A stretch of DNA of 64,000 nt from a virus, in IMG/VR virus record IMGVR_UViG_3300007517_000005, positions 21,512 to 85,511 of that record, one strand, 5' to 3'. Every line of letters begins with the position of its first letter. Positions within the stretch are counted from its first letter, which is position 1. The translations under genes and the position numbers were made by a program. Below are positions 2,578 to 61,186 of the stretch, one piece after another. The notes beneath the pieces are model-generated. The model was not told the DNA's origin, did no database searches, and saw only the letters and a list, made by a program, of their open reading frames with translations.

Positions 2578-2748
2578 TGTACTCTCCGTACATTACACTC
2601 CCCTAGGGTCGCAGCCATGCGGCACTCCTTTGCACGGCACTACATTAGAGTATCACGTGCCCTCTATTTATCTCTCTTACCACACGCTAAATGCTCTATG
2701 TATGTATAATGTGTGGATTGTGCACATATTTATAACTATCAAACAAAC

Positions 2749-3138
2749 ATGAGACAATTACATTGGTACGCTGTCCAATACCACATACTGCAGAAGGCTA
2801 TGGCTGGTGTAGTAATAGATGTCCTTGTAGAGCATGCCCCCACCATTGCCTACCGCAAAGCTAAGGGTAAACAACAAATCATCTCACTACCACCAGATGA
2901 TGATATATACCTCTACGTATACAGCAGCATGATAATGGAAGGGTACATCTTAGTGCCCTCCCCAGATAATACAGTACATCTATGCAGTGGTGGTTCTGCT
3001 ATATATAATGTCACTGACTCTACCTGCACGTGTCCCGCCTATACCTATAAGGGGATGGCCTGTAAACATATGCAGATGCTTAAAGGTTATTCAGTTTATA
3101 GGCTTAGAGCTATGGCATTACGTTCTAAAGCTATGTAA
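2749..3138 (+). CDS. SWIM zinc-finger protein
   Basis: YNV...CTCPAYTYKGMACKH (CxC-x8-CxH); ATG at 2749 preferred, with TATAAT at 2705-2710 upstream. Confidence 0.7.
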   Translation: MRQLHWYAVQYHILQKAMAGVVIDVLVEHAPTIAYRKAKGKQQIISLPPDDDIYLYVYSSMIMEGYILVPSPDNTVHLCSGGSAIYNVTDSTCTCPAYTYKGMACKHMQMLKGYSVYRLRAMALRSKAM

Positions 3139-4285: not shown

Positions 4286-5716
4286 TTATGAGCCTATACT
4301 AGGCTTTGTACTATCTACAGTCGGTACCGCTGCTGCTTGTTTACTACGCTTCTTACTCCTGGGGAATGAGAGTAGGTCACGTACATGATTATTATCTATA
4401 TCATCTGAAGAGTCTATGTACCCTTTATCGGTCATCATGGCTATTGCATCTACTAATACCTTAGTCTCACTCCACCTTATTGGTAACTGCGGTAAGTCCC
4501 CGTAATCGTACGCTGCAGGAACAACCCTAGGATCGAAGTTGTACTGTATTAACTGCGCTACTACTGATGATAGGAAGTCCTGCGTAACCCTCTGATATAT
4601 GCTCGTTATGAAGTGGTGGTACATCTCCACCTGCCTCTCCGATGACTGCCCTGAACCTAACCCACTATTAGTATCTCTCATTATTAAGTTGGGTATGTTC
4701 AATCCCGTCATCATCTGCAGGTCGCACATATTGATGGCATCCGTAAAGGCAGATGCAAAGTTACTACCGGTAGTCAATGCCTCTAACTTCACGGGCTGGT
4801 CTACACTTAACTGTGTCAACACTAACCCCACTTCACTCCTCATCTCCGATAGTTCCCTCGCTACTACCTCATGGTAGAACATAGGCCTATCCTCTGTAGG
4901 GTGCTGCTCATCTGATTGCTGTATTGGTACTATCGCATATACTATCGGGGTGCCATACCTATCCAATGCCACCATCATTAGATCTAATATAGACCTCTTG
5001 AATAAGTGGTACTCAAATACTGCTGTCAACATGGACTCACCCTCTGGGTTATTGCCCATCCCCTCGTGCACTGTGTGGCAGAACTTGCCCTTATTTAATC
5101 TAACCCATCCCCCTACTGTAGATGTATCCATGGGCTTGGGTACCCATATACCTGTCTGATTGAAGTCCATACCTACTGATGTAGTATTAGGTACTTTCTC
5201 CCCATGCGTTAACATACCATTAGCATTTACTACATACCTGACTTCTGTCGGGTGGTACGTTACTACATCAGTTAACCAAGTCTGTGCCTCAGATCTAGGT
5301 CCTATTTTACCACACCATATGGCTTCCCCTAACCCATCCCCCGCCCATAGACTTTGATACGTTAGATCCTTCAACCACTTCTTCACACCCCCCTTTAAAT
5401 TAGCTGCTACAAACTCCTCAATCATAGGGTGTGAGTGTGCGAAGGGGCCCGCCATTGCCGCTACAGAAGAAGCAATCATATTCAATGCCTCTTTAAAGAC
5501 TGGCTCATTGATCCTAGCGTAATCGTATGCCGCTAATAAACCAGGGTCTCTGCGCCTCCTCGTCTGGAATGTCTCCCCTGTAGATATTAAAGGGGTCGCG
5601 CGCCCCAACATACCCATCTTTCTTGGTTGTCTCCTTATTAGAGCACTAGTCCCCACGGGGGGTAATGTACTCAACCCTGATTCCTTACCGCCCGTCGGGT
5701 GCTGATCCATTATCAC
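4286..5716 (-). CDS. Portal protein (DUF935 / Mu gp29-like)
   Basis: NNPEGESML...FKRSILDLMMVALDRYGTPIVYA...GLGSG...LIQYNF pattern; 476 aa. Confidence 0.8.
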   Translation of the reverse strand: MIMDQHPTGGKESGLSTLPPVGTSALIRRQPRKMGMLGRATPLISTGETFQTRRRRDPGLLAAYDYARINEPVFKEALNMIASSVAAMAGPFAHSHPMIEEFVAANLKGGVKKWLKDLTYQSLWAGDGLGEAIWCGKIGPRSEAQTWLTDVVTYHPTEVRYVVNANGMLTHGEKVPNTTSVGMDFNQTGIWVPKPMDTSTVGGWVRLNKGKFCHTVHEGMGNNPEGESMLTAVFEYHLFKRSILDLMMVALDRYGTPIVYAIVPIQQSDEQHPTEDRPMFYHEVVARELSEMRSEVGLVLTQLSVDQPVKLEALTTGSNFASAFTDAINMCDLQMMTGLNIPNLIMRDTNSGLGSGQSSERQVEMYHHFITSIYQRVTQDFLSSVVAQLIQYNFDPRVVPAAYDYGDLPQLPIRWSETKVLVDAIAMMTDKGYIDSSDDIDNNHVRDLLSFPRSKKRSKQAAAVPTVDSTKPSIGS

Positions 5717-6828: not shown

Positions 6829-9800
6829 TTATCCTACCACGTTTACTTCCCAATCATCCCCTTCTGAGTAATCACTCTCACCACTTGGGTATGCACTGAA
6901 GTCCGTAGTGGGATTATCCATCACATACGATACCTCTATAGCCGCTCTCATAGGGTCTCCATCATCATCCATTACCGTACCCTCACCCACTTGCGCTAAT
7001 CTCTCCCCTATCATATCCTGCCTCTTTGATTCTGTTTCTGACATACTCCTCACGAAGCTCTCTACAATGCCTAGTGATGGTATTAAGTTAGTGCCATGCA
7101 CTGCTACCTCCCCCCCTATTACGGATGTGAGCATCCCTAGTACAGATGATAGTACTGCACCTCCTAATGTATTGGAGGCCGCCTTCCACCCCTTGTACCT
7201 ATCTACATCCATAGGTCTATCTACACGTAAGGGGCTAAACTTAGATAGTATCCTCTCCGCACCACCCATAATGGCAGGGGCTATTACCGCTGCACCCATA
7301 AAGAACCCTACCTCTCTACCAACCCATCTCCTTACCCACTCCCCCTCATCCTGTGAACCCTTAGACTCCGCATGTGCCATCCTCGCTCTAAATGATTGCC
7401 CTAGTACTGACGCCACACCTGGTCTACCCATTTGCGAGTACCCTAACATCGATACCGTCCCACCCACTACCTGCCCTATTGTATTCTCGTTGATAGAGCC
7501 GGTCGCCATTAGTGAACCTAAGAGTGTGAGCCCTGCACCCAATACCATGTCATTCATGTCGTGCATCCTACCTACGGCATCGTGCATCTCCTGACTATGC
7601 CTTGCATGACTAGCCGCCTGAGCTCCTGGATTCATGCCCGTTAGTACTGCCCTAGGGGGATTTGATGTTACTGCCTGTGCCCTCAAGGCAGCACTAATTA
7701 TAGGCGTAGACGCATCGCCCATCTCTCTACCCCGTATCTCTCTGGTCTCCGCCTGGTGCAGTGGATCTCTTGCCTCTACTATGGCCTCTTGTGACGCCTG
7801 CTGCGCTGTCATACCCTTGGATACCTTCTGCTCGGATAGTCTCCGGATGGTCGCTGATAATACTTCAGCTTCTGGTAATGATGCCCCTAACGCACTACTG
7901 ATTGTGCCAGCCCATGATTGATCTGAGTGCATGGTCTGACTATTGAACGCATCCCCTATATTATCTAGTAATCGTCTCCTCTGTCCTGTTGATGTAGCCT
8001 CTAATGCTACATCCAAGAACCCCATGGGGGAGCTATGCTCACCTATCACCTCCCCCGCGCTATTCCTTACATTGAACTTCCTATAACTCTCCCCCTCCCC
8101 TAATGGGTCATCATGGTACCCTACACGTATACCCCCATCCTTCTTATTGATGACCCTTACGCCTACACCACTCACACTATTCAACTCAAGGAAGCTCCTA
8201 CCACCTTGAGTCTGACCTAGTACCTGCTCCATACCTGTACTATCGCCCATGAAGTCCTTCATCACGGTCATGTAATGTGAGGCAGCCTCTGGGTCTATGC
8301 CATTCATACTACTATTCATTAGGGCTATCGTTATATCTGTATCCGCTAACTCCGTTGATATGCCTGACATTGTCTGAGACCTACCGCCCCCTAACTTCCC
8401 TGCCTTCTTCCTCAATGTCTCTAATGTGACGAACTGATTCAATCCCTCCCCTACACTACCGAAGATAGGGTCTGTCTGTTTCCTCCCTTCATCTACTAAC
8501 GCCAGCATTAAGGCCTTGTTCTTGCTCGAAGCTTCATCCCACCACTCATTCGCATCCTTTGATAGGGCCGCCCCTATGTCAGCCTTCAATGAGGGGTCGG
8601 ATATGAACTTCCTATCCATAGCCTCATCCCGATCCACATCCTCCCCAACCCCTAAGAAGCCACGTATGCCACTCCATATTGTATCTAGGAATGGTTGATT
8701 GTCTTTTGACCCTAGTTCGTAGCGGAAGGCAGTAATCGTAGCTCTCATGTCCCTCGCTACTTTGTACCTGACTACATCCCCAATAGTCCCATCTGATACA
8801 TCCACACCCCTATCGCGCATCTCACTACTCAAGCGCGTCATCTCCTCATTAGATGAGATCTTGTACTCCTTACTCAAAAATGCTATAGAACTATCATCTA
8901 TGCCTGTCAGGGGCTTACCATATACATTATTACTTGATGTCTCTATCAGGGTACTTAACTGCATGTATGACCGTAATCCAGGGCCAGGGCCTAACTTACC
9001 CGCCATCTCACTCAAGACTGCCCTCGCACTCGCATCATCCCCCTGGTCAATGTACTTCTGGTACTCCCCATGTGTCTTCTGTAAATCACCTAATACATCC
9101 GTGTCCCCCTTGAATTTGATACTATCCCTTAGTAGCTGCTGTGCACTCTTCATGAATGCCTGCAATGACTCCGCTCTCTTCGCCTCTATATGTACCTGAT
9201 TGAATGTCCCCTCTACATCATCTGCCATAGTGGTACCAGCATAGTACTCCTTCATACTATCCATCACGGTACTGCCACCCTCACCGCCTAGTACATGCGA
9301 TAGAGCTATTAAGGGACTATCGCGGAATAAGGTACCCACTAGGGCATTGTATGACTTACCTAATATGTCACCGCCCGCTACCCCTAATGTCTTCGTTAAC
9401 ATGTCATATACTGTGGGGCTCATTGATGCACCACTACCCATACCCATATACTTACTGTAATTGGATACTGCTACCTCTGATGATGATAGTTGGGCCGCAC
9501 CCTCCATTAGGCTACTACTTACATCCTGCTCAGGCTTAGCTAAGATAGACTCCATCATCTTAGTTATTACGTCTGCTCTCAATGATGGGTTGTTTGTTAA
9601 TAGCTCCCTGAAGTGATTATCAGACACATCCTTCAACATCACTGACGTATCTATATTGGAGGTAGATAATGCCTCACTTATTGATGCACCCTGCTTGAGT
9701 GATGATAATGCACTTCTGAAGTCCTCTGTTGCATGTATAGACTCCATCGTCGCATGTAACGCCATGATGTTATTATCGTGCGCTACCCCTTGTACCCCAC

Positions 9801-12800
9801 CGAATAATCCCCTCGATTGCTGTAAGTACGTAGGCAGTACCTCCATTGATATGGGCTTCTCCTGGTACTCACTCATGAATGCTTGCGATACCCCTAAGTA
9901 AGATGACACCTCCTTCCTCAGTAAAGGGTCATATGTCTGCGCTAATGTATCCCTCACCGAGGACATCTCCGCATCTATAGCTTTGATCCTCATGCCTATC
10001 TCCTCATTAGCTATGCGGTACTCATCACTCGCTAACCAATACTCATCTAAGTACTCACCCCCATTACTACTCGCCTGCTTCCTCAGCATCCCCTGCCTTA
10101 ATGTATTACTCTTCACCCTATCCGTTAGCCTCTGCCTATCATTCATGGCAGTCCCTATCTTGGAGAAGATTACCGTGAAGTTATCACCATCATAATCTAG
10201 TAACCCCAGTGCATGACCTGACATCACGGGCATTAACCCCAGGCTCTTATTGCGTCTCTCATCTAACTGTGACATCCCCTGACTCTCTAAATACACATTC
10301 AAGTTCTTCACTAACCCCACGGCTGTAAATTGCTGTCTCTGTAACTCCGTAGAACCGAATGGGGCTGACCTGAAGACTGTTGCCTGCAATACATCAGATG
10401 TATTTAGAGATACCTGTAATGACTCCATACGCGCTAAGGGGGCCTCAATAGATGTCCACTCACCCCTACCCTTATGTAATGTATCTAAGGCGCTACTTAA
10501 CTCCCTTAACTCTGTGCGGCTTGTCTCTATTAACTCCTTCTGGGAAGTGTCGTAACCATATGCACTATCTACTCTCTCAAGTGATACCAATAGTTCATCT
10601 ATAGATACCTTAGATCTATCCACAGAGTCCGCTAATAACTCCCTACTCTCACCCATCCCTAATCCCTGGAATAGACTCCTATCTATCCTATACGTCTCTA
10701 TACGCCCTCGTACACTACCCTGCCACTGCCCCATACTATCTGCATTGATAGCCCTCCCTAACTGTTCTATGAGGTTCTTATTAGGGACTACCTTCTCACC
10801 CGCTGCCATTGCCTGCTCACGGTTAGCGTACTCCTCACCACCTACCATGAATGATGACATCGTCTCCGTACGTGAGAACAACCCCTCCCACTCCTTCGTG
10901 GCGTTCTCTCTTCTTCTAGGGTCTGCTGCTATCTGCTGTCTCTCTACTATCTCTCTTAACCTCCCTGTCGGGAGTGCTAACGACCTTGTTACCTTATCCC
11001 TCTGCTTACCCGTCCACGATGACTCTACTGTCTCGTACTTCCTATAATAATTACCATCCCCTGACTCTGATACACGTAATTGACTATCGCCCCCTACACT
11101 GTATCTCTTGAACCAAGTACCGCCCTCTTCGTTATAACTACTGCTAGTGTTGAATGCTGTATCGAACTGCCTGCGTTGGTACTCAAGCTGCGATGTAACA
11201 TTACCCTCCGCCTCCCTTAACCTAGTCAGTGTTCCCTTCTTTAATGTTATATCCCCGTACGTGCCAGTAAAGGCCACACTCTGCTCTAGAACGCGCGATA
11301 ACCTCCCTAATGGTGGTAACTCATTAGCTGTTGTCTCTATTAATAAGGATGGTGTAATAGACGTATATGGGTCTATACGGTATGGCTTATCTTTACTAGA
11401 TACGTACTGGTCATCTAACGCTAACCTAGCACGCCTCTCACTACCCTCGTATACCTTCTTACTCCTTAACCATGACTCTAATGCTGGGGGGTTTACTGTC
11501 CTCTCGTAACTGTTCTCCCATACACCACTCGCACTACGCAAGACCTGCTCCCCTAGCTCTACTGCAAAGTAATTACCCTCATTACCCTCTCGTGCACCTA
11601 CTATATCTCTATAACTCCTCACACCTGGTAAGTTCGGGATATCTTCTGTACCCACACGGGAACGGGTATAATCCTTTATCTCCTGCGTTATACGGTCTGC
11701 TTGTACCTGGCTCACACCTATACCAGACCTTGTCTCCATTAGGGTAGATACATGGTTAGCATCTTGTATAGTCCATAACCGGGCCGCTATATATTCCTTC
11801 TGTAGTAAAGGGTTCCTTGTTATGTACTCTACATCCCCTTGCACTGTACGCAATAACATTGAGCCCTTCTCCCCCATACCACCCATTAAGGCATCCCTCT
11901 CCGCTTTCAACAATCGCATGCTATCCCTTGATGCAGGATCGGATAAGGAGCGTGTTACCTCCTCTAATCTCTGACGGCGTAGAGAATCACGTACATCCCC
12001 TGCACCACGCATACCTTCCTCGGGGGCTAAAAACATCCCCTGTGGTAATCCGAATGTGGCGGCGAATGTACCCACAAACCCACGTAATCTCGCCTCCATC
12101 TTCAAGCGTGTACCCGTTGATGCCTCCGCTATCCTCTCCACAATCCCATACGCGGTCACATAATAGTTCTGTAGTGCTTTCACCTCATCTGCTGTGAACT
12201 CTACAGACCCCGCCCCTGTTGCCTTTACCTTCGATAAGGTAGAGAATATATTACCTATTGCAGTTCCTGGACTGAATGCAGATGCTAGTGTTAGTGTACT
12301 CCTCACTAATTCATCTGTATACGATCCATACTGGATACCATATGTTCTTAAGTCCTCTGCACTGGGTAGGTAGAAACTAGTACCTGGTGATACATCGTCG
12401 AACCTCGCAATGATGCGCCCTGACTCCGATGGCATACTATCGAATACCACCGCTGGTAAATGATATATACCTCTCTCATGCGACATCTCTCTGGCTATAG
12501 CTTCTGCCTCCCCCACACCAAATGCCTTAGTCGCTAGTAACTCATATCTCCTACCCACATCCTGTATGGCTGATAGGGATGTACTATACTCACCCCTCCA
12601 CATAGAACCTAACAATGATTGCGTGTGTATACTACTGGGATTACTAGCCTCGAATAATAATGTACTCAACTCACTCCCTAATGTGCGTACATCCCCCACA
12701 CCACTTGCTAGGGCAGTCACTCTCTCTTCAATAGCTATCTGTACCGCCCCACCATAATCTTTATATGACTTCTTCAGGGCCGTTATATCCTCCATCCCTG

Positions 12801-26684: not shown

Positions 26685-28724
26685 ATGACTACATATGACT
26701 TCAAAGCCTTTGCTACCGCTATCAATGATCACTTCAAGTTGATGGCTAACTATAACCTATATACCACTACTGCTTCTAAAGATGATCTATACGACGCATA
26801 CCTACAAGCATACCCTGATGGTACTAACCCTATATACGTGAATCGTACAGAGTATGATTGCTCTACCTGTAAGGAATTCATACGTAACATTGGGGGTGCG
26901 GTTGCTATCGTAGATGGGGCAATAGTACCTGTGTGGGATGTGCCGGGGCTTGAGTACCCATACAATGTGGTTGCTGAGACTATGTCCGCTTACGTTACAT
27001 CACACCCTATTAGCTCTGTCTTCTGCCTTAAAGAACTATCCTATGGTGCACCACATAGTAAACAGTTATTACAGGGTGGGGATATACGCACCTGGTACCA
27101 CTTCTATGCGCGTGTAGATGCTAAGTACCATTCCAATACCCCGGCACAAGTTATAGGGGACTCTATTACTGCTATGCAAGTCCTACGTAGAGGATTGAGT
27201 GAGTTAACCCTGGACTCTATCACTACTGTACTAGAACTCATAGATACTAACTCTATCTATAGAGGGGCTGAACATAGGGCCGCTCTCGTAGCCTTTAAGA
27301 CACTTAAGGAGTCGTATGACACTACACCCGCAGAACAACAGGAACTACTGCTATGGCTTAATGTGACACACCATAATGCACGGTTCCGTAATACTGTCAT
27401 CGGTACATTAGTACAAGACCTATCAGATGGTGTGGAACTAGAGAAGGCAGTACACTCCTTCGAGACTAAGGTTGCACCTACTAACTATAAGAGGACTAAG
27501 TCCCTTATTACACCCGGTATGCGCGATGGTGCCCTGAAGACCGTGCGGGAGTTGGGGCTTGAACCCTCCCTCAGTCGTAGACATGCACGTGTATCTGATG
27601 TCTCCATTAATGATGTCCTGTGGGTTGATAATGCAGTACGGGGGCTTATGAAGGAAGGCGGTATAGCTGCACTACTGCAGACACAAGTTAAGGTTAAACC
27701 CCCTAACTTAGATAGTGCTACCCCTATCAGTATTGAAGACTTCATGTCCTCTGTACTCCCACAGACTACTACGCTGCAGGTATTACTGGAGAGTAGATTA
27801 CTAGGTAACCTAATGAGCCTCACTGCACCTTGTGATGTGAGCTCCCCGCGTATCTTTAAGTGGGGTAATAACTTCGGGTGGTCATACCGTGATAATGTGG
27901 CCGATAGTATTATCAAGCAGAGAGTTAAAGGGGCGGGGGGTAATGTTACCGCCCCCTTTAGGGTTAGCCTCGCATGGTTTAACTATGATGACCTAGACAT
28001 ATACGTTTATGTACCTGGGGGCGGGTGGCCTATATGCTTCATGAATAGGACTGTGGGCACAGGTACATTGGATGTAGATGCAAATGCAGGTCGTCGTCGC
28101 AGTAGAACACCCGTCGAGAATGTATGTTGGACCGCTCCGATAAATGGCACCTATCAGGTACACGTTAAGAACTTCAGTAAGAGAGAGTCTATTGATGTAG
28201 GCTTTACCTTAGAAGTAGAATCCATGGGGATTATCTCTACATACCATTACGACCGCCCTGTAGGTGATCGCTGTATTGTACATTGCCTAACCATTACCGT
28301 CAGGGGTGGACAGGTAACTGATATCACAGCCGCCCCCAATGTAGAAGGTAATTCATCTTCCACGACTGAGTGGGGCCTCATGACACAGACACTCGTGAAG
28401 GTAGATACCGTAATCCTCAGCCCTAATTACTGGGGGGATAATCATAGTGGTAATAAGCACTGGTTCTTTATCCTACATGAGTGCCTCAACCCTGAGCCTA
28501 CTAGGGGTATCTATAATGAGTTCCTGCGCCATGAACTAGAATCACATAAAAAGGTGTTTGAGGTGCTCGGTGATCTTACTAAAGTACCGCCTGTGCCTGA
28601 ACAACTATCAGGCCTAGGGTTTTCGTCTACACGTAACGATAAGCTTAAAGTCATAGCTACTGGCATCAAAGCTAACAGCGCCGTGAGCATATCGACTAAA
28701 GCCTATGAGATTAACTTCTCGTAA
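26685..28724 (+). CDS. Conserved phage protein with YfaP/DUF2135-like domain
   Basis: 679 aa; YDCSTCKEFIR N-terminus; SLAWFNYDDLDIYV...LDVDANAG...PVENV; AGGAG RBS. Confidence 0.6.
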   Translation: MTTYDFKAFATAINDHFKLMANYNLYTTTASKDDLYDAYLQAYPDGTNPIYVNRTEYDCSTCKEFIRNIGGAVAIVDGAIVPVWDVPGLEYPYNVVAETMSAYVTSHPISSVFCLKELSYGAPHSKQLLQGGDIRTWYHFYARVDAKYHSNTPAQVIGDSITAMQVLRRGLSELTLDSITTVLELIDTNSIYRGAEHRAALVAFKTLKESYDTTPAEQQELLLWLNVTHHNARFRNTVIGTLVQDLSDGVELEKAVHSFETKVAPTNYKRTKSLITPGMRDGALKTVRELGLEPSLSRRHARVSDVSINDVLWVDNAVRGLMKEGGIAALLQTQVKVKPPNLDSATPISIEDFMSSVLPQTTTLQVLLESRLLGNLMSLTAPCDVSSPRIFKWGNNFGWSYRDNVADSIIKQRVKGAGGNVTAPFRVSLAWFNYDDLDIYVYVPGGGWPICFMNRTVGTGTLDVDANAGRRRSRTPVENVCWTAPINGTYQVHVKNFSKRESIDVGFTLEVESMGIISTYHYDRPVGDRCIVHCLTITVRGGQVTDITAAPNVEGNSSSTTEWGLMTQTLVKVDTVILSPNYWGDNHSGNKHWFFILHECLNPEPTRGIYNEFLRHELESHKKVFEVLGDLTKVPPVPEQLSGLGFSSTRNDKLKVIATGIKANSAVSISTKAYEINFS

Positions 28725-38254: not shown

Positions 38255-38326
38255 TGCTGGGTAGCACAGTGGCAGTGCGCTTGATTGTTACTCAAGATGT
38301 CGTAGGTTCAATCCCTACCCCAGCAG
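38255..38326 (+). tRNA. tRNA-Asn (GTT)
   Basis: Cloverleaf: TGCTGGG/CCCAGCA acceptor, CTTGA-TTGTTAC-TCAAG anticodon arm, GTAGG-TTCAATC-CCTAC T arm; no encoded CCA. Confidence 0.9.
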
Positions 38327-41059: not shown

Positions 41060-41246
41060 TCAAGAGTGTAGGCTTAGTTATAGGAGTATGTGTTGGTTTG
41101 TACCTCACATACTCCTTGAAAGTATATCTGGGTATCAATCTAGATATAGCAGGGGATGAGCACTTCCCTTCAGTCATTGAGAGGAAGTCTCACGGAGTGA
41201 TTAAATGTAGATGGTTCCCCAACCATCACCATTGTAAGTAGTAATA

Positions 41247-41279
41247 TAGTAGGCCCTACCCATGGGCCTATTATTGTAC
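41247..41279 (+). promoter_or_regulatory. Conserved intergenic hairpin motif, copy 1
   Basis: TAGTAGGCCC-TACCCAT-GGGCCTATTATTGTAC. Confidence 0.75.
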
Positions 41280-41296
41280 TCTATCAATTTAGTCCC

Positions 41297-41911
41297 ATGT
41301 TAGTATTAGCTCTGTCTGTTGTCTCCGTGGTATGTGTGGTATCTATTGTATCAGTCGTGTATTTGTACCAACAAGTACAGTCGATGAAAGCTCAATTGGT
41401 GGCAGCACACACCAATACCTCGTTCGATTGTCTCACTCGCACTGGTGTGCGGGTCACGTGGAAGGGCGGTCGGCAGGGATTGATCTTTATGGATCTAGAT
41501 CACATGCACGGCTTGAATAGCCTCCTAGGTTATGCACAAGTAGATGCACTGATCCACCGCGCCCTTGCTACCTTGCGTAGCACCGATGCAGTATCATCGA
41601 TCGGGCAATGGATGAGTGGTGATGAGTTCATCATCACCTGCTTTGCAGGTGAGGAAGTGGGTCTCGCCACGCGGCTGCGTGGTGTCATGAGTGATATCAC
41701 TCAAGAGTTACGGATGGATTCATCCATCCAAGCTAAGCATGCAGAGTTACTGGCTACGGATGCTCGGTATGGCATGTCAGCACCTACGTTTGCAGCCACC
41801 TATGGCTGTGTCACCACAGTGACAGGTGCATCACTAGAAACAGAGGTGAACCGCGCCTCTTTTAAGGTACAGGCTGCAAAGGCCGCCAATGATCGTGGAA
41901 CTGTAAACTAG
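41297..41911 (+). CDS. Membrane-anchored GGDEF-domain protein (diguanylate cyclase-like)
   Basis: N-terminal TM helix; DCLT, FMDLDHMHGLNSLLG..D, SGDEF. Confidence 0.8.
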   Translation: MLVLALSVVSVVCVVSIVSVVYLYQQVQSMKAQLVAAHTNTSFDCLTRTGVRVTWKGGRQGLIFMDLDHMHGLNSLLGYAQVDALIHRALATLRSTDAVSSIGQWMSGDEFIITCFAGEEVGLATRLRGVMSDITQELRMDSSIQAKHAELLATDARYGMSAPTFAATYGCVTTVTGASLETEVNRASFKVQAAKAANDRGTVN

Positions 41912-41930
41912 GCTCTGTATATTTATCTAG

Positions 41931-41963
41931 TAGTAGGCCCTACCCATGGGCCTATTATTGTAC
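41931..41963 (+). promoter_or_regulatory. Conserved intergenic hairpin motif, copy 2
   Basis: Identical to copy 1. Confidence 0.75.
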
Positions 41964-41983
41964 ATACTCAAAGGATAAAGATC

Positions 41984-42535
41984 ATGACTAACTCTAACTT
42001 CGATTACGTAAACAACTACACTCCCGAAGTGGGTGTAGCAATGGACTACTACGCAGCGTCACTGGGTGAGATGTTTGCAGCAGAAGAAGCATTAAATGTC
42101 GCCAAAGAAGCAGAAGAAACAGCATTAGCAGAAGCTGATGCAGCCTCACTACTCAATCACACACAAGAAGAATATCAGTACTACCACCGTACAGTGGTAG
42201 CATTGTGTGCAGCAGAAGATGCAACCTCTGCCGCCCGTACAAACTACGATGCTGCGTGTGCAGCATGTCTAATTCAATTAGACAATCTCTTAGCCGCAGA
42301 GGCAGCAGTATTGTACAACTTATACTGGGACGCCCAGTTAACGGTGTACGCTGCTGAAGAAGCAGAAGAAGCTGCATTAGCAGAAGCTGATGCAGCGTCC
42401 TTACTAGATCACACGCGCGAAGAGTATCAGTATTATCAACAGACAGTAGTAAAACTACGCACTGCGGAGGAGGCTGTGATAGCAGCCTGTGAATTACTGG
42501 TAGTAGCTGCGGTGGCTGCAAGCATCACAAAATAA
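41984..42535 (+). CDS. Acidic Ala/Glu-rich helical protein with internal duplication
   Basis: ALAEADAASLLxHTxEEYQYY twice; very few K/R; AAGGA RBS. Confidence 0.65.
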   Translation: MTNSNFDYVNNYTPEVGVAMDYYAASLGEMFAAEEALNVAKEAEETALAEADAASLLNHTQEEYQYYHRTVVALCAAEDATSAARTNYDAACAACLIQLDNLLAAEAAVLYNLYWDAQLTVYAAEEAEEAALAEADAASLLDHTREEYQYYQQTVVKLRTAEEAVIAACELLVVAAVAASITK

Positions 42536-42597
42536 CCCTTCTTTTAGTAGGGGGATCCCCAATCCCCTTCTCTTGACCCCCTTACCCCCTAACATAT

Positions 42598-43251
42598 ATG
42601 TCTATTAACTACTACCACCAAGTCTGCGGCACAGAAACAACCACGACTCGCCTCGCGCGTGGTGGGTGCGGTACATTGACAATGGCCGGCCACTGGGCCG
42701 GCTACAATTGGATATCAAAAGTAGATCAGAGTGGATGTGCAATGCCACTCGTCCAACGTGAGTGGGAGATACTCAAAGAGTTACAAAACACTGGCTTAGT
42801 GCCAGTAGTGAGCCCTGTCTCACCGCACATAAACGGTAGTATCATGCACATCCAGTGCATCGATAATGCTGCCAGTCTGCTTGACTATACACAAGCATAT
42901 CTAAATGGGTTAATACCTATTGGGGTATTGCGGGACATATTAACATTAGTGGTAACTGCTGTTACCACGTTCCACTCACTCGGGTGGGTGCACAACGACC
43001 TACACAATGGGAACATTGTCGTAGGACATAACCAGTACACATGGGAAGTGTACATAATCGATGTGGCCATGGCCACACGCGCAGAAGAAGAGGTACCAGA
43101 AGCCTTAGCAGAGGCATTTAGTATACCTCACTTACCCAGTGAGGACTGGTACTTCCTCAAGTGGTCAATAATGGCCGAGGCGGAGGAGTACGAGGACGCG
43201 GATAAGGGGCGGGAGTTGCAAGACTTAGTTGATGAATTGATACCTGAGTAA
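42598..43251 (+). CDS. Protein kinase-like (Ser/Thr, RIO/Kdo/APH fold)
   Basis: LARGGCG, K..REWEIL, HNDLHNGN, IIDVAMA. Confidence 0.8.
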   Translation: MSINYYHQVCGTETTTTRLARGGCGTLTMAGHWAGYNWISKVDQSGCAMPLVQREWEILKELQNTGLVPVVSPVSPHINGSIMHIQCIDNAASLLDYTQAYLNGLIPIGVLRDILTLVVTAVTTFHSLGWVHNDLHNGNIVVGHNQYTWEVYIIDVAMATRAEEEVPEALAEAFSIPHLPSEDWYFLKWSIMAEAEEYEDADKGRELQDLVDELIPE

Positions 43252-43255
43252 TTAG

Positions 43256-43288
43256 TAGTAGGCCCTACCCACGGGCCTATTATTGTAC
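43256..43288 (+). promoter_or_regulatory. Conserved intergenic hairpin motif, copy 3
   Basis: One loop substitution relative to copy 1; precedes the polymerase gene. Confidence 0.75.
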
Positions 43289-43309
43289 TTACAACAATCA
43301 ATGAATATC

Positions 43310-46300
43310 ATGGCTACTTCAAACAACGGTTCCATTGTTTCTACCACCACCTCTACTACTCCTTCTGCTACTCCTTCTGCTACTACTATGAACACTACAT
43401 CTACCTCTTCCATCTACAAAGCTGCTGCTGCAGCCCGCAAAGCAGCAAAGGCAGCAGCAAAGGCTGCACCAGGTATTGCCATTCGTGCAGCGAAAGCAGC
43501 TAAGGCTGCAGCCATTGAAGCTGAACGTGAGGCAACTAAGGTTGCCGCTATTGAAGCTGCGCGTGCGGCTGCAGCTATTGCCACTGCTACACGGTTTGAA
43601 GTCTACTGCTACTTGACTGTAGCCTCTATTAAGGGCAATGCTGCCACTGCGGCAGTTATGGGTTCTACCACATTGGTAGTAGCCGCTGCCTTTGCAGTAG
43701 CAGTCTTAAAGGTACGCCGCCCACGCAAGGCCACTCGTGCCGCTCGTAAAGCAGCCGCACGGAAGGTAATGGGTATTGCATCTCGCAAGGCTAACCGCCC
43801 TTCTAACCGCCCCTCTCGCGCTACAGTAAGCACTTCTAGTGCGTTTGTACGTAAAGTGCACCGCAACAGCATGGCTGTTAAGCGTGCAGCACGCATGGGT
43901 GCATTAGCTGTGTATCAGTATGTAGCTATTGCTACTGCTGTCGCGGCACCTGTTCTGGCTAACACTTCTACCTCTGAAGTAGAAGCTATACTAGAACGCC
44001 CTAAGCGCACTGCGAAGGTAATGCCTTTAGCTTTGGTACGACCCAACGTACGAGCAGTACGCCACTATATTGCAGTTGCAGTTGCAGTTGCAGTTGCAGT
44101 AGAGGTAGAGGTAGAGCCTACTACTGCATTCTCACGCACTGAAAAGGCCGAGGCTGACAAAGCTAAGGCTTCATTGAAGGGCAGCCGCACAAAGGCGCAG
44201 GACGATGCTATCGAAGCTAAAGCTAAACGTAAAGCTGAAGCTAAGGCTAAGAAGGCTGCTAAGTCTACTTCCACCCCCAAGACTAAGACTGATAAGAAAG
44301 ATAAAGGTAAGGGCATCACCTCTGAACGCAAAGGAGCCCACAACCTAGTTGTGGCGGGCCCTACCGCTGACAACTACGGTTGGGTAGAGATATCCAATGA
44401 GGAGTTACTCCTCTCCCTTGAGTCTTCAGACTCTCATACTGCAGTAGGTCAAGCTGCAGAAACTATTCACAAGGACAATAACGACATGACTACTAACTTC
44501 TCCCCTGAAGTAATCACAAAGAACTTAGAATGCTTACTGGCTGGGGTTATTACTCCCGCAGAAGCATTCCTATTGGCACAGCACCAAACTGTAGCCGCCA
44601 CAACTGTGGTAGATGGTTCTGTGGTGTGCATGAAAGCACCCGCAACTCCTGCTACATTAGCGCCTGTGACTAATGTAGAATTGGCCTACACAAGCGAAGG
44701 CCGGTTCTACCCTGCCAAGGCTTTAACCAAAGAGTACTTTGCAATCCCGGCAGACTTCTACGCTATGGAGTCCATCCGTATTGCGTACAAATCAATGAAG
44801 TTGGATACTCACACGTATAACTTCTACGATGAAGGTGGCACTGTCTCTATTAAGACTAACAAACACAACAACAGTATCTTCATCAACAATTCCCACCCTC
44901 GCATCTACTTAGTAGATGGTGTAGAGTACCACTTCAACAACTTGTTGGAGGCAGTGTTCAATGAATCTATATCTGCCACTAATGCAGGTGTGCTAGAACA
45001 GTGGGCTGACTTCAATATTGAAGTTACAGGAGTAGCTGAAGATTTGGGGTGTGACTTAGAAGAAGCTACTACTCTAGTAGTAGCAGCAGGATTTGTTAAA
45101 CCAGCCCAACCTATCCACTACATAGTCCCTATCGCAGAGCGTGTAGAGACTAAAGAGAAGGGTAAGTTTGAGTATAAACTGAATGAGAAAGCTATCATCG
45201 AGAGTGCAGCCTTATGGGAAGAACAAGGCTATGAAGTACTCGTTATTAAAAGCGAGTTAGTGGTTAGCAACCTCTCTGTAGAGAACTTCCGCTACAACGG
45301 GTGCATTCCTTGCGAACCCATTACTAACCGAGAGCTAGAGCGGTTAGTATTGAGTGAGGTTGTACAGAAATGGAGTGCTGATAATATCCACTTATCAGTG
45401 AAACCCATATCCAACCTGTCTGAATGGTTGGATAAGGTAATGAACTCCAATACCGGCTCTGTAAAGAGCATTAGTTTCTCCTTCAATAACATCACCAATA
45501 TACAGCAACGTATATCTGATGTGAAGGGATTCTCACACGAGTTCACCTTCGCTACTCCCAAAGATCACTACGATGCTTTAGGTTTGGAGGAGGGTTCTGT
45601 ACCTGCGTTTACAATTAACTTGTGGACTAGCGCCCCTGCTAAATCTGCAGTAGTAAGCCAGAAGGTTATGGCAGATGTCTTAACCAATGTACCAAAGTTA
45701 GAACGCCGCACTGGTACACAAGGTTCATCTTTGTCTGTGCGCGGCTTATTTGCACAGAATGCAGGTCGTAATAATGTGAAGCCTGATGCTCCAAGACAAT
45801 CATTAGCTCATAAAGTGCTCGCTACTAATGTTGTAGCTTCAACCACTAGTGCATCAGTCACTAATGAAGTGATTACACCTACTGTTGCTGAGGCTAAAGA
45901 GGCTACCGCTTCGGCTGTTGTCATAGACACAGTATCTGGTGGGGCCGCTTTTGAGGTAGATTCAGTTGGTGGTGCATTAGATACAGCCCCAGTTATTAAT
46001 GCTGGTGATGTATTAAAACCCGCAGCGTCTAGCAAACAATCAGCTACTCCTGTAGTAGCTACAACCTTGAAAGACGTAGATAGTCAATTACTAGCCTTGA
46101 CTGGCTCATCATCTGATGATGAAGAAGAAGAGATTGATTTAGATGATATGGATCTCTGCCAAGCAGTAGAGTTGAAGGAAGTAAAGTTTACTCCTAGCTA
46201 TGATGGCGACATCAAAACTATCATAAACGACTTAGATTTGGCTATAACAACCATACCCGCAGGTGGTGACTACGGGAACTACCTCAACGATGTGATATCC

Positions 46301-49300
46301 ATCTCTGAAGAGTTGTCAGGGGATGAAGCTACCCAAGTGTTAGTCCACGAACTAATGCACGTAGTAATCTCCAACGTCAGCGAAGATGCGGCTAATAGCT
46401 TCATCACTGACTGGTTAGACACGGTGGGTCAATCTAGTATCTGCCCCGCAGACATGAGTATGGAGGAACAGTTCTGCTACTCCTTCATGGAGTACGAGCA
46501 TAATGTAGATGACCTATCCGCATTCCTAGATGGAGTATTCAATCGTGATGATAGCTGGGTTGATGCTTACAACGCATTAGCTGTAGCAGCCGGGCCAGAA
46601 GTAGCCGCTAAGTCTACTGCCCACCTCAGCATCATCGCTGAGGGCACTGCACCTGTAGTACCAGCATTGAGCCCCATGAAGGCCGCCTTATTGGCGGTGA
46701 ATGATCAAGAGATCATCATCGTAACAAATAACAAGGGGACAGTGCCAGTAGCATACACTGATGCGTTCCCTGAACTGTTAGATGTTATGCCAAGAACGTT
46801 GGAGTACGGTAGCACAACTACTGTGACTGCCGCCTGTGGTGTTACCTTGCATGCTATCTGCGCGGTGAGTGAGACAGGCACTTTGCATACTGACTCACTG
46901 AAGAGTGGCTTGATGCACATCGCAACTCTTGGTTGCGATAAGAAGTACGTCTGTGAACCAGACCTGGGCTTTGGCGATGATATCATCATCAAGCCCTACA
47001 TATTGGGTGCTGTCACTACCTTGTTAGGACAAGCTAAGGTACGCACTTTACAATTACCTGTAATGGGGCGCCTCGTTAAAGCATGGGCTAATGCCGGTGC
47101 TGTGGTAACGTACCCTAAAGCAGACCTAAGCCTATGGGCCGCTGATTTATGTCGAGGTACAGCACTAACTGCTACTGCAGTAGGTACTGGTGAAGTGCTG
47201 ATGGCACAACGCACTCCAAGTGGTCGCTCTATGGTTGCCACTATGGCGATCATTAAAGAGGACGGTACAGTTGATAAGGCTGCCTTAGCAGTCGGCTTAA
47301 CTGAATTAGAAGAAGGTATCGCTAATGGTCTAGTGCCACTGCCAATCACGGTATACAGCAATCAACAGGTTGCCTTTAATACCATCAAGTACCAACACTC
47401 TAATGCCATACGGGGGGTAGAGGTTGTAGACTATGAGCAGAATGTCTTCCCCGAAGCAGTAAAGATTGGTGTCTTAACGAAGGGCCCCAAAGGTGAAGTA
47501 GGCGCTGACCTATATAAGTGGTATAGCTTCTTACGAGATGGTATCAGCGGGGGCGCTGGCCTGTACAATGTACAGGAGTTGAGCGTAGAGCTCTTCACAG
47601 AAGCATTCAAGGCAGTAGGGTTGCCTGTAAACCTAGCTGGGTTCGCATTATGCCCAATGCCACTACGCTTCTTAAAGAACGGCATGGTGTTCGTACGTAA
47701 TGGTAAGACCGCCAAAGGTGTAGTAGAGAATGCTACTAAGTTCGAGGACATGATCGATAAGACATTACTCGGTGTGTTATTAGATAGTGGTGTAAAAGTG
47801 TACACAGCGCAATATGCGTGGGATGCTGCTGCTAAGAAGTCCATGATTCGTGGTGTTGTAGAGAACATCTACGATTACGAGCAAGGGTATGGTCTGGAGC
47901 CATTACCAGAAGGTATAGCTGGCCAAGACATGCTGAAGCTGAAAGAAGATAATGAATTCATGTACCCTATCATCGCATTGGGTACAATAGGTCACAGCCT
48001 AGACCAGTACATGCAGAAGCATGTCCACGATACACTACAGTACCTGGTAGACAACTTCGGCGTAGGTGTCGCAATCCGCTATACACAAGCATTACTCCCT
48101 GAGTTAATGCAGAAGGAAGGCGTGATGACGACCGATGGTACATTACAGTATCGTCTATCCGTGTTCAGCTTGCAGAATGCAGCAGAGTACTACATGGAGT
48201 TCACTCCTGTAGAAGGTCTGAATGATACGGATCCTAACTGGCTATCCCCACGCGACTGTACAATCATCTCGCGTCGCCAGTATGACGTGAATGCCATCAC
48301 TAACCTGTCTGGCTTCCCTGACACTATGTACGATGGGACTGTGGTAGCACTGGCTTTGGCTATCTCTGCAGCTTGTGGGCGTAAGGTAACACAGGATGCC
48401 TTTGAGGGTTACCTTGCTGGTACCACTAACCTCTGGGCCCGTAGTGAGAACTACGGTAAAAAAGGTATCACCGAGAAGTTCGCCAACTACTCACTGACAT
48501 CTACACTGAAAGTCATCATTGACAACAGTGGTAAGACTATTTCAAGTACACCGAACCACGTTATTGACGCAAGTGGTGTCCGCTTAAGCAAGGAGACAGG
48601 TGCAGGTCGCTGGCCATACCACATGCCTTGTAATGCCCCCCTAGACCTCTCTGTAATGCAGTGTCTAATGAAGAAGGGGCAACTTGTTATATGCGATAAG
48701 TACGCTATGGAGCGTATTGTAGTAGGTGATGGCGCACGTGCCATGATGGCCTCTATACTGACTGTAGAGCAAGCTTCTGAGCTAGCCGGCTATAACCAGA
48801 ACTATGGTCTGAGCATGGCCCTAGACCCCAACAATGGTAACTGTGTAATGTCAGTATGCTGGCCTACGGATAAGGCTAGTAAAGCATTGAACCGGCCGTG
48901 GCAGTTCAATGGAGCCAGCCAAGCAGATGGCTGGCATGAGAAGTTAAGCTGGTGCCCATTGCACACAGACTTAGGGAACAACAAGCGCTCCGCTATCGAA
49001 GGTTTCAAGCGCACCTTTATCGCTACTAACGACTTTATGTCGCACGGCAGCGGTACTGCACAACAACATCCTGACGCCTCTTTGTGGAGTCTATTTGTAC
49101 CAGGCTCCATGTCGGCTACATTGACCTGGAACCAAGTTCCAGCAGTACAAGAGAAAGTGGATGCCAATGGTAATCACTTAAAGGGTCTGCGTTGCAATAC
49201 TGCAATCATGGGGCCCGTATCAGGTGAAGGCCCCGCTGGTAAGGATGCAGATGGCAAGGAGGTACCAGTGTCTAAGTGGTTCTGCGATACCTTTGCGAAG

Positions 49301-52300
49301 ATGTTCGTAGAGAATGCCATTAAGAAGGCTATGTTTGAAGCCGATGGCACTACTCCACGGGTATACGCTCCAGGTGAGGAGATGGTAGTAATACTCGATA
49401 AGTTAATGGTCAAGGGTAATGAAGTAGTTGGATACTACCCTAATGGTCAGACTCCTGGCTTACCTTCATCCCGAACTGTATTGTTTACCAATGATTTAGG
49501 TAAACAGGACTGCGTTATCACAGGGTACCGTTTACTCCCACAGCAACGTGGTGAGAAGTTACAGATACGACTAGACTATGCGACAGTCATGGATACCAAT
49601 AACATTGACACTTCAATGTACTCTGGTATGAAGGGGCGTGGCCTAGGTATCAAGTTCATCATCAACCACGATGGCACTATTGAGTACATCGGTAAGGTTC
49701 TTTATAATGGGGAGATGGTTGACGCCAATGAGTTGTACAAACGTGGGGCTATCCACGTAACTCCAGAAGGTCTGAAAGGTAACTACGCCTTCATACAAGG
49801 GTTCGCCTCTGCACACGGTAATGCAGTAATGAGCGGCCCTTACCTGACCATTGACAGTACCATGCCAGATGGTACTCCTAACCCTCACTACCTCCTAGGT
49901 AGTGCAGACATGGTATCGGATATGTCCGATTCTAATGCTTACTTCTACAAGTGGATGAAGAGCATCACGCAAACTAACCGCATGCGGAAGACAGTGAACC
50001 GTGATGTATGGGAAGAGATTGTAGCCTACAACCGGGAAGCATTAGGCCCCGATGGTAAGTTACCAGGCTTAGTCATCATCCCACAACCTGGCCCCTACGC
50101 TATTGAGTGGGATGGGGAAGTAGATGGGCAACCTCACGTCACTACACCCAATGTAGTGACGGTAGAGTACGACGTGCAGATCGCAGTATTTGATTACTGG
50201 GTGCAAGTGGAAGTCGCTACACCGGGTGCATGTACAGGTGACCAAGGCGCTACCTCTGAGCAAGCAGTGCACATTGAGGTCATGCGTGAAGCTACTGCCA
50301 CCCACTTATGGAAAAGTAGTGCGAAACAACGCAAGGGTGTAAATAGTGCAGTAAGATCTGCAGAAGTCCACGCTAACGTGGAAGCAGGTATTCAGGAAGA
50401 TGGCCTGTTCCAGTTCAATCCACTAGACAAAACACATCAAGAGTTGATGATGCACTTGTTGAATCAAGTGTCTAGTACAGGTGTACGTACAGAACGTAAG
50501 CCTGAACACTTCTTCATACTGTTAGCTACATTGTTCGGTGGGGCCGCTATGAACCCAACCGCGCTATGGTTGAACATGTTAGCAGGTAAGGTATCAAACC
50601 TTGACTATGTTGAAGGTGCTAAGGGTATGGAAGTAGTTACCAACAGTGGTGGCTATAACTACCTGACTGAAGTTACTGGCTTATTGGAGCTAGTGATGAA
50701 TACACTGGGTGTCTTTCCCTTAGAAGAGCTAGGCTTAACGTTACGTGACTTGCAGGAACTTGTTAGCATAGCTATTCAAGATCACCTGACAATGGACGTA
50801 GCCGGTACACGCACAGTAGTGGAGAGCATCACTGGTGTTACCATGAGCACATCCGCTACAGCCCTAGGTATACAGATGTATATCATGGACCTTATTGGGT
50901 TAGGGTACACAGTAGTAAAACAGGTTGAAGGAAAGCCTGAACCGGATCTAGCCATCATCCCATTGCACGTGGGACAAGGTTTAGTGATCAATACAACTTC
51001 AGAGAACACTGAAGCTGGTGAAAGCCAGGAGGCGGTGACTTATGTTGACCCGACTGTGTTCTTACAGTTGGGTGCATTTGAGGTTAGCCGCATAGCCGCA
51101 GACCCTAAGACTCATGCCCCTGCACGTACTGTTACAGGTGCTGCTACAGGTGTGGTCAATGACATACACCACGCATTCGTGGAATGGACCACAACACAGT
51201 TCTGGCAACGTAATGGTAGCGGCACCCGCCCACACTCCATGAACTGCCGCTTGCGGGCATCCATGGCGGGTTGGATTGGGGTTAACAGTAAGAAATCAAC
51301 CCAGCTTAACGCTAAGGGTGTACTGTCACGCGTAGCACGTATTAACAAAGGTGGTGTAGCTGGTAAAATAGATACAGGCTTAGGCCCTGAATTAGGTCAC
51401 CACATCGTCACCGATAAGAATGGTACACCAGTAGGTAAGCTACCTGTAGCCATCATCCACCCTGACTGCTTACTAGCCAAAGGGCTGAAGCATGGTGACT
51501 TAATTGCAGTAGGCCGTACCCCCACGGTATCCCTAATAATGGCCGTAGTGCGCTTCTCCCGCGTATTCGGACGTATGGGATATATCCGCATGTCCTTCTC
51601 CGTATGGGCCGCTGGTAACAACGGAGATAGCGATGGAGACCCATGTAACCGCATCCGTATGGGTGGCGCCACCGATAAGGGTTGGTCTGGCTTAACCTAC
51701 CGAGGTGCGATGAAGATCAATAAGAGTGCCCTCGGTATGGGCGGCTATAGCATAGTGTGTGGTGTCCCCTTACATCAACATGACTGTGCAGAGTTCGTGT
51801 CCTTTACGAACTCCTGGACTAAGAAGGTATTCAATGATGCCTTGATACCTGACTCCATTAAAGCATGGCTAGCCGTTAAAGGCTTGAAGGTCAAGGGACT
51901 GGAGACATTGGTTAACTTGATGTTACCTGCTAGCTTACTGGATAGTGCACGTAAAGTGTCACAACACTACCGCGCTAACGTAGGCGTCGCCTATGGTTGG
52001 TGTAGTGCATACTCCGCACACATGAAGGAGAAACACTCATACCTGAAGGCAGTACTGAATGCTGTCTTGAAGAGTGAGGCTGCTTTAGCTTGTGGGCATG
52101 AACTGCCATCAATAGATACATTGATGGAAGTGTTAATGAGTGGTGAAATCTATGAAGCTATCCGACTTACCGCTGTAGATACAGTGGTGGATGGTACAGT
52201 AATGACCACTATAACTCAAGATGCAGAAGCAGTTGTGCGGATCCGCATCAAGTACCCTGCCATTATGGCACTGTATGACCTCAAGCTAATTGCTGAAGTC

Positions 52301-61113: not shown

Positions 61114-61186
61114 CGGCTCTTAGCAATCTGGTGAATGCACAAGCCTCATAAGCTTGCTGAGGTGGGTCCGATTCCCACAGGGCCGA
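61114..61186 (+). tRNA. tRNA with CAT anticodon (Met or Ile2)
   Basis: CGGCTCT/AGGGCCG acceptor, CAAGC-CTCATAA-GCTTG anticodon arm, GTGGG-TCCGATT-CCCAC T arm. Confidence 0.82.

Follow-up and report, generated by a model that had tools for sequence, protein, structure and literature searches.

Which function is carried by a protein of more than three thousand residues in a phage group that has been described as having no RNA polymerase (RNAP) of its own? This question is raised by the open reading frame (ORF) at 43283-53044 (plus strand) of a stretch of IMG/VR virus record IMGVR_UViG_3300007517_000005. All positions refer to the window, by which we mean the whole stretch of 64,000 nucleotides (nt) that was analysed, bases 21512-85511 of the 85.5-kb record (CheckV completeness 51%). 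The window contains two giant ORFs, 6829-18522 on the minus strand (3,897 amino acids, aa) and 43283-53044 (3,253 aa), the latter being the subject here. The DNA datasets holding this sequence are freshwater and aquatic metagenomes, and the one with the full length is a freshwater metagenome that may be the sample of origin; no RNA sequencing dataset was listed in the run search. The nearest deposited phage is Microcoleus phage My-WqHQDG, a "jumbo" myovirus of about 240 kb, and more distant deposited relatives are the Microcystis phages Ma-LMM01, MaMV-DC and MaMV-DH01. The genome of MaMV-DH01 has been stated to be without an RNAP (PMC9927357), and according to the transcriptome paper on Ma-LMM01 all infection phases rely on host sigma70 (PMC5780444), so that the group stands published as polymerase-free and host-sigma70-dependent throughout. 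A sequence-only reading of the window had taken the ORF for a giant polymerase with a zincin motif. Judging from sequence comparisons and structural models, we consider it likely that the 3,253-residue protein ends in a divergent single-chain two-barrel RNAP, belonging to the family of Ma-LMM01 gp064, and that this polymerase is fused behind a zincin and a macrodomain-like module. Database records label all members of the family as hypothetical, a full-text literature search found no publication describing it, and scans of viral contigs for relatives found none.

The motifs on which the sequence-only reading was based (HELMH, EEQF, GMKGRGLGIKFII, GRTP and DSDGD) all lie at the sites where they had been placed, in one open frame. 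This frame begins with TTG 43283, but the TTG overlaps a conserved intergenic hairpin (43253-43292), and therefore ATG 43301, ATG 43310 or ATG 43388 is more likely to be the true start. The database gene call for the ORF has 3,218 aa. Its parts are the following, DPBB standing for double-psi beta-barrel and E for E-value:

43283-53044, plus strand: giant ORF, 3,253 open codons from TTG 43283
43388-44317, plus strand: residues about 36-345, low-complexity N-terminus rich in Ala, Lys and Arg, little conserved in homologues (first invariant alignment column S347)
44321-45682, plus strand: residues about 347-800, conserved N-terminal domain or domains with invariant columns, of no known family and with no Pfam match even at E 10
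45683-46159, plus strand: residues about 801-959, low-complexity linker rich in Ser, Thr, Ala and Val, ending in the acidic run DDEEEE
46160-46594, plus strand: residues about 960-1104, zincin-like metalloprotease domain, from motifs, weak profile matches and model
46346-46360, plus strand: HELMH, residues 1022-1026
46463-46474, plus strand: EEQF, residues 1061-1064
46682-47182, plus strand: residues about 1134-1300, macrodomain-like fold from Foldseek, with limits inferred from secondary structure
47183-48859, plus strand: residues about 1301-1859, middle alpha/beta region
48860-53041, plus strand: residues about 1860-3253, two-barrel RNAP-like module, homologous to Ma-LMM01 gp064 and to about 78 metagenomic clusters
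49475-49759, plus strand: candidate beta-like barrel DPBB-B, beta-rich (strands at model residues 206-300), with K2117 and K2124 invariant and R2119 near-invariant
49625-49663, plus strand: GMKGRGLGIKFII, at residue 2115
51341-51664, plus strand: residues about 2687-2794, beta'-like barrel DPBB-A with GRTP and DSDGD, from model and hhalign register
51512-51523, plus strand: GRTP, at residue 2744
51626-51640, plus strand: DSDGD, at residue 2782
51926-52069, plus strand: residues 2882-2929, candidate bridge helix of 48 residues with invariant H2895-Y2896, positioned after DPBB-A as in PMC10770324
52379-52408, plus strand: residues 3033-3042, candidate trigger-loop-like element YEGLGLSGYS, invariant and closing a long helix, assigned by inference only

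An exhaustive phmmer search with residues 2060-3253 against 1.8 billion representatives, clustered at 50% identity, yielded 78 clusters, most of them consisting of proteins of 1,250-1,700 aa whose match lies around residues 2620-2920. Among deposited phages the family occurs in the Ma-LMM01-type Microcystis phages and in one Microcoleus phage. Its member in Ma-LMM01 is gp064 (1,673 aa, annotated as "hypothetical protein"), which runs colinearly with residues about 1777-3057 and has DADGD. Mean column identity in an alignment of 38 sequences is 16%, and the invariant residues are K1867, G1907, G1924, K2117, K2124, K2165, E2310, R2745, P2747, D2782, D2784, G2785, D2786, F2838, H2895, Y2896, Y3033, E3034, L3038, G3040 and R3178. 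As far as the sequences tell, such a pattern marks the active site of an enzyme and is not a product of chance; one would expect approximately 0.04 instances of D.DGD in a protein of this length (our own estimate, from typical residue frequencies). Within ten close homologues (2,358-3,410 aa, 43-53% identity) the zincin and lysine motifs show no variation, and G2744-R-T-P as well as D2782, D2784, G2785 and D2786 are kept in at least 90%, with one alignment row being incomplete.

What defines a two-barrel RNAP is that one DPBB carries a DxDxD triad and the other contributes two basic residues (PMC7824862). The sequence-only reading had pointed to a spacing between the R-P turn and DxDGD close to that of bacterial beta', and this is indeed the case: R2745 and D2782 are 37 residues apart, compared to 35 in Escherichia coli beta' (R425 to D460) and 39 in phi14:2 gp66 (R1322 to D1361), and both R2745 and P2747 are invariant. 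The same reading had likened GMKGRGLGIKFII to a motif of the beta subunit; its K2117 and K2124 are invariant and lie in a separate, beta-rich domain upstream. Also the remark that the centre residue of DxDGD is Ser instead of Phe or Tyr was correct, and it extends to the whole family. Nearly all members spanning the site have D[S/T/A/G]DGD, the exceptions being a single DFDGD and the 1,211-aa protein P0077 without an exact DxDGD; thus the small centre residue is a family trait.

Structure prediction had been proposed as a check on the polymerase claim. We obtained an AlphaFold model of residues 1860-3059 from a 52-row alignment, with a mean predicted local distance difference test score (pLDDT) of 82.5 and a predicted template modelling score (pTM) of 0.81. 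In a Foldseek comparison with the PDB, DPBB folds dominate the best matches of this model: the N-domains of p97, CDC48 and VAT, formylmethanofuran dehydrogenase subunit D (FwdD), the DMSO-reductase barrel and a designed DPBB, the last with a template modelling score (TM) to target of 0.69. Weaker matches are yeast RNA Pol III C128 (343 columns) and maize RDR2. Compared with BFVD, the top match is the MaMV-DC homologue (2e-29), then a long "minor tail protein"; further matches include nudivirus LEF-9, a beta'-like subunit (8e-3), a crAss-phage protein and RNAP beta subunits of giant viruses (0.08-0.24). Around the triad the predicted order is strand, R-T-P, strand, strand, short helix, DSDGD loop and strand, which matches the beta' series VLLNRAPTLH / GIQAFEPVLI / AIQLH / PLVCAAYN / ADFDGD / QMAVHVP. 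The triad barrel is followed by a helix of 48 residues with the invariant H-Y and then by a helix that closes in the YEGLGLSGYS loop. In the model this order of helix and Gly-rich loop is the one expected for bridge helix and trigger loop, for which these elements are candidates. A further detail of the model is a low-confidence stretch at residues about 2466-2564 (nt about 50678-50974), which close homologues lack or in which they cannot be aligned; probably it was inserted in this lineage into the connector that joins the two barrels.

The family profile was furthermore compared by hhalign with profiles of known polymerases, the E-values being those of single comparisons. Against an alignment of 73 beta' sequences the sole local match covers 46 columns (E 0.04) and pairs V..RTPM...NEGDSDGD with VLLNRAPTLH...NADFDGD, so that RxP and DxDGD are both in register; the single E. 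coli beta' sequence gives only a motif match of 23 columns (E 0.1) and E. coli beta nothing relevant. With the two experimentally proven single-chain RNAPs of Thermus phage P23-45 the scores are 37.3 for residues 1-1200 of the virion enzyme gp96 (E 0.0025, 119 columns) and 28.9 for the non-virion enzyme gp64 (E 0.017, 201 columns). In both cases the sole match is the catalytic block GDxV..RxP..DxDGD, in register. Lower scores (13.6-22.2) were obtained for all 15 controls, of which 13 were unrelated phage proteins and two were reversed sequences. Even the best of these values (E 0.0025, 0.017 and 0.04) are short of usual thresholds, and a search meant to enrich the gp96 template recovered nothing beyond P23-45 itself.

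Several observations weigh against a polymerase. Pfam detects none in the whole protein, in sub-ranges at E 10 or in 36 family members; NCBIfam has no polymerase match; PDB sequence searches with the protein and three profiles gave no polymerase, and PF00623 finds nothing in the whole virus record. In PHROGs the only match is a weak one to a metalloprotease. No Foldseek match of the 1860-3059 model to the PDB is better than 1e-3, and the matches to RNAP subunits all have E above 1e-3. At its centre the triad motif has a small residue and not an aromatic one. In the model the Lys-bearing domain upstream is beta-rich and is only a candidate DPBB with approximate limits. Finally, a computational analysis of Ma-LMM01 placed sigma70-like motifs upstream of every gene class and reported no phage-specific promoter (PMC5780444). 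On balance the polymerase reading is supported, though not proven, by the predicted fold, by invariant residues of active-site type and by register-correct alignments to beta', gp96 and gp64.

How does this candidate compare to known enzymes? Phage P23-45 is a precedent for paired virion and non-virion single-chain RNAPs (PMC10770324). As in its gp64 and gp96, there is one polypeptide, here with the candidate barrel B before barrel A (PMC10770324), there are two very different such proteins per phage, one of them a giant protein of the virion module, and there is no detectable similarity to cellular RNAPs beyond the motif. In contrast to P23-45, the similarity is marginal, the module is about 1,400 aa long compared to 616 aa for gp64, Ser or Thr stands at the centre of the triad motif, and the fusion partners are a zincin and a macro-like domain instead of a tape measure. 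With bacterial beta and beta' the protein shares R-x-P followed by DxDGD, the same order of strands and helices and two invariant lysines upstream, which may be compared to K1065 and K1073 of beta. Unlike the bacterial subunits it is one chain, its lysines are 7 instead of 8 residues apart, it has no match to Pfam RNA_pol_Rpb1 or Rpb2, and we recognised no sigma-binding or flap elements.

The link to crAss-like phages made in the sequence-only reading holds in one respect and fails in another. Zincins do accompany crAss-like RNAPs: phi14:2 gp65 carries one, which in some of these phages is fused with the RNAP, and for some a zincin-RNAP has been proposed to be a cleaved polyprotein (bioRxiv 10.1101/2020.03.07.982082). 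The virion RNAP gp66 of phi14:2 (PDB 6VR4) is likewise a giant protein with a DxDxD barrel and an adjacent or fused zincin. However, the giant protein has no detectable similarity to the crAss virion RNAPs, since hhalign with gp66 and with an alignment of 45 crAss RNAPs returned irrelevant short matches only (E 0.18 and 0.32). Furthermore, the motif of gp66 is DFDID, and gp66 is encoded in the structural module and proven to be packaged. The giant ORF lies among small non-structural genes, with the head module 25 kb away on the opposite strand. Membership of the polymerase in the crAss family, tested by profile similarity, was rejected.

For the zincin itself the sequence-only reading is supported, and the domain can be described as an IrrE/ImmA (M78)-like HExxH...E domain whose ligand motif is invariant in close homologues: H1022, E1023, H1026 and E1061-E1062-Q1063 do not vary in an alignment of 11 homologues. 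The region matches the phrog_87 "metallo-protease" (E 7.7e-4). Pfam Peptidase_M78 (PF06114) stays below its gathering cut-off of 22 here (13.5 bits, E 0.063), and it is sub-threshold in six of eleven homologues (best E 5.8e-4). The model of residues 960-1104 (pLDDT 85-96) has a helix, three strands, the HELMH helix and then helices carrying EEQF, an order compatible with the zincin fold. The Foldseek list of the model of residues 940-1870 was filled with macrodomain entries, and no zincin match was seen among them. HELVH is found at the equivalent place in Ma-LMM01 gp064 and in two metagenomic relatives; one 1,674-aa member and all members of about 1,300 aa have no HExxH. As many family members lack it, the protease is accessory and cannot be required for polymerase function. 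That the protein may be a self-processing polyprotein, as the sequence-only reading inferred, is a sensible idea in view of the literature (PMC5512222). In another relative, P0008 from a 266-kb contig, a zincin-like domain occurs in two tandem copies (residues 1029-1194 and 1228-1350).

Between zincin and polymerase lies a macrodomain-like fold, which is absent from the sequence-only reading. With the model of residues 940-1870 macrodomains lead the Foldseek matches in the PDB: alphavirus nsP3, coronavirus Nsp3, TARG1 and a Streptomyces macro protein. There are dozens of such matches from four lineages (probability 1.00, E 4e-4 to 2e-2, about 150 columns, TM to target 0.5-0.63). At the sequence level Pfam Macro gives no match at E up to 10, neither here nor among eleven homologues. 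Inside the region the segment C1224-E-P-D-L-G-F-G is conserved, and in our reading it is reminiscent of the second phosphate-binding loop in macro domains. A second fold of related function occurs elsewhere in the family. Three relatives, the My-WqHQDG protein included, contain a NADAR domain (3e-20; residues 2963-3094 in P0012, 2823-2948 in P0011 and 919-1042 in P0014), inserted about 190 residues past the triad, so that it separates the bridge-like helix from the Gly-rich loop; at this place the giant protein of the window has an unrelated stretch of about 80 residues. Two different ADP-ribose-processing folds on one polymerase lineage suggest a role against host defence based on NAD or ADP-ribose. 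Domains of the macro and NADAR types are usually standalone in phages (PMC9503650).

The succession of protease, macro domain and polymerase resembles alphavirus nsP2-nsP3-nsP4 and coronavirus Nsp3, and viral macro domains are the best matches of the middle domain. Nevertheless, the polymerase folds (palm versus two-barrel) as well as the proteases are unrelated. The resemblance to RNA-virus polyproteins is thus one of convergent architecture and not of homology.

Genomic context can also contribute to the question. The other giant ORF (6829-18522) is situated directly upstream of a Mu-like portal gene (4286-5716), two ORFs and a major head protein gene (17-1303). It contains FRSAP...DYDGD, with the family consensus NLGDFDGD, and is in this respect more canonical than the family of 43283-53044. 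Its homologues carry a PLD-like domain (PF13091); the one in Ma-LMM01 is gp080 (3,562 aa), and contigs of the same relatives carry both giants. By hhalign the two giant families align with each other in the DxDGD block only (E 0.12), and the profile of the 6829-18522 family gave nothing against beta' or the crAss RNAPs.

The giant ORF 43283-53044 belongs to a short run of genes punctuated by a 40-nt element, which has a 7-bp GGCCC stem and a 7-nt loop (GGCCC-N7-GGGCC) followed by the invariant CTATTATTGTAC. Only four copies exist in the 85.5-kb record. Three precede the small genes at 41297-43251 and the giant ORF and one comes after it, so that the copies bracket four consecutive genes:

41244-41283: hairpin with CTATTATTGTAC
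41297-41911, plus strand: ORF resembling GGDEF (diguanylate cyclase), 22.9 bits, just below the Pfam cut-off of 23.8
41928-41967: hairpin with CTATTATTGTAC
42598-43251, plus strand: small kinase-like protein (Kdo/WaaP and Pkinase, sub- or near-threshold), directly upstream of the giant ORF
43253-43292, plus strand: hairpin with CTATTATTGTAC
53100-53139: hairpin with CTATTATTGTAC
53187-53415: three 69-bp tandem repeats just 3' of the giant ORF
positions 11707, 12782, 13507, 14718 and 25061 of sequence L001 (not of the window): hairpin with CTATTATTGTAC

The element is present at equivalent intergenic places of My-WqHQDG, where the proteins are just about 50% identical (47% for the kinase-like protein). 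Because sequence and position are kept at this level of protein identity, it should be more than a generic terminator and is a candidate for a phage-specific promoter, terminator or processing signal. In Ma-LMM01, gp064 is directly followed by seven 42-bp repeats, and then come gp063-gp054, which are its only early genes (PMC5780444); gp062, two genes from gp064, is annotated as "kinase".

Other hairpin families (20-40 nt; cores AGCGTAGCGACCTA, CTCCCTGTCGGGAGTG, CCAAGGGTCGTAGCC and others) occur in both orientations. When the whole window was scanned with five specific cores, allowing up to two mismatches, about 30 loci were found, which are dense at 18.6-32.5 kb and 54.7-60.3 kb. The statement in the sequence-only reading that no such element is inserted in the giant ORF is borne out, as none of the loci falls within 43283-53044; a permissive 11-mer has two matches there. 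The conclusion drawn from it, that the gene is essential, goes too far. The other giant, of 11.7 kb, holds just one (10954-11001), and depletion is expected of any long constrained ORF.

Combining these results, a mechanism may be envisaged. The Asp triad D2782, D2784 and D2786 would bind Mg in one barrel, 37 residues after the R-x-P turn; a second beta-rich domain about 660 residues upstream would supply K2117 and K2124 as the counterpart of the beta-subunit lysines, and the long bridge-like helix and then the conserved Gly-rich loop would follow. The product of 43283-53044 would appear early in infection and then transcribe the later genes of the phage without the host RNAP; early synthesis is suggested by the location of the gene in a short hairpin-punctuated run, away from the head module that contains the other giant. 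By analogy to N4 and P23-45, the latter (6829-18522) would be the injected enzyme and the 43283-53044 protein the second, early-made polymerase. The zincin would trim the giant protein or attack a host target, and the macro module would erase ADP-ribose marks or signals that come from host defence. In its widest form, which we put forward tentatively, this amounts to self-contained transcription in the Ma-LMM01-type and Microcoleus jumbo cyanophages: an injected giant with PLD and DFDGD would read the hairpins with CTATTATTGTAC that bracket an early operon, and a second polymerase armed with zincin, macro and, in relatives, NADAR domains would clear ADP-ribose adducts or signals while it transcribes.

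The same polymerase fold might also act from within the virion. The protein would then be a "polyvalent" effector that is packaged and injected with the DNA, whose own zincin cuts out a basic N-terminal part, the macro module and a virion RNAP transcribing the first genes. Its size and its multidomain layout, in which a zincin-like metallopeptidase is combined with modules aimed at nucleic acids or host defence, are those of polyvalent proteins (PMC5512222), and they also fit the virion RNAPs of N4 and the crAss-like phages (bioRxiv 10.1101/2020.03.07.982082); Macro and NADAR proteins are often found in myovirus heads (PMC9503650), and the N-terminus is indeed basic and of low complexity. However, polyvalent proteins are defined by delivery with the DNA (PMC5512222), and the gene of the giant protein lies outside the structural module, after the small genes for the kinase-like and GGDEF-like proteins, whereas portal and major head protein adjoin the other giant (6829-18522) instead. 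Many family members are, moreover, bare polymerases of about 1,300 aa that have no protease. Proteomic data for the phage group were not found, mass spectrometry being still needed according to PMC9927357. We consider packaging the less probable deployment.

A two-barrel nucleotidyl transferase need not be a DNA-dependent transcriptase. It might be a primase-like enzyme, a DNA polymerase similar to PolD or an RNA-dependent RNA polymerase (RdRP) of the QDE-1/RDR type. The two-barrel core is common to RdRPs and archaeal PolD (PMC7824862, PMC10770324), and the presence of maize RDR2 among the Foldseek matches and the small centre residue of DxDGD, unlike that of transcriptases, point in this direction. 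Yet the nearest register-correct alignments are those to beta' and to the DNA-dependent enzymes of P23-45. Furthermore, Ma-LMM01 encodes DNA polymerase I and a primase (PMC5780444) but the group has been described without an RNAP (PMC9927357), so that transcription is the role left to fill. We regard a function other than transcription as unlikely. A non-catalytic structural or ejection protein, with barrel and acidic loop serving metal-dependent folding or binding, would agree with the lack of a significant sequence match to any polymerase and with the occurrence of DPBB folds in many non-polymerase proteins, but is highly improbable given that three Asp, the Gly, R-x-P and two distant lysines are invariant at 16% mean column identity, as in an active site, and that spacing and secondary structure match beta'.

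If the giant protein is a divergent RNAP as we propose, the single-chain two-barrel RNAPs, a small set (YonO, crAss gp66, P23-45 gp64 and gp96, QDE-1) that informs reasoning on the origins of RNA polymerases, would gain a family. As far as the searched literature goes, a fusion of a two-barrel polymerase with domains that process ADP-ribose would also be without precedent. In the self-contained transcription system envisaged above, the protein would parallel, in a DNA phage, the protease-macro-polymerase polyproteins of RNA viruses. The view that only the host enzyme is used leaves unexplained three temporal gene classes with nearly unchanged host expression, which a cryptic phage polymerase, probably two, would explain. 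Ma-LMM01 on Microcystis aeruginosa NIES-298 is a cultured system that holds both gp064 and gp080. Newly seen in this analysis are the macro-like domain, the NADAR insert of relatives, the conservation of the hairpin in My-WqHQDG and the hhalign comparison with controls.

Three minor features complete the window. The protein encoded at 26685-28724 matches phrog_1735 with 2e-223, a widespread phage protein to which no function is assigned.

26685-28724, plus strand: ORF of 679 aa, phrog_1735
38255-38326: tRNA-Asn(GTT)
61114-61186: tRNA-Met(CAT)

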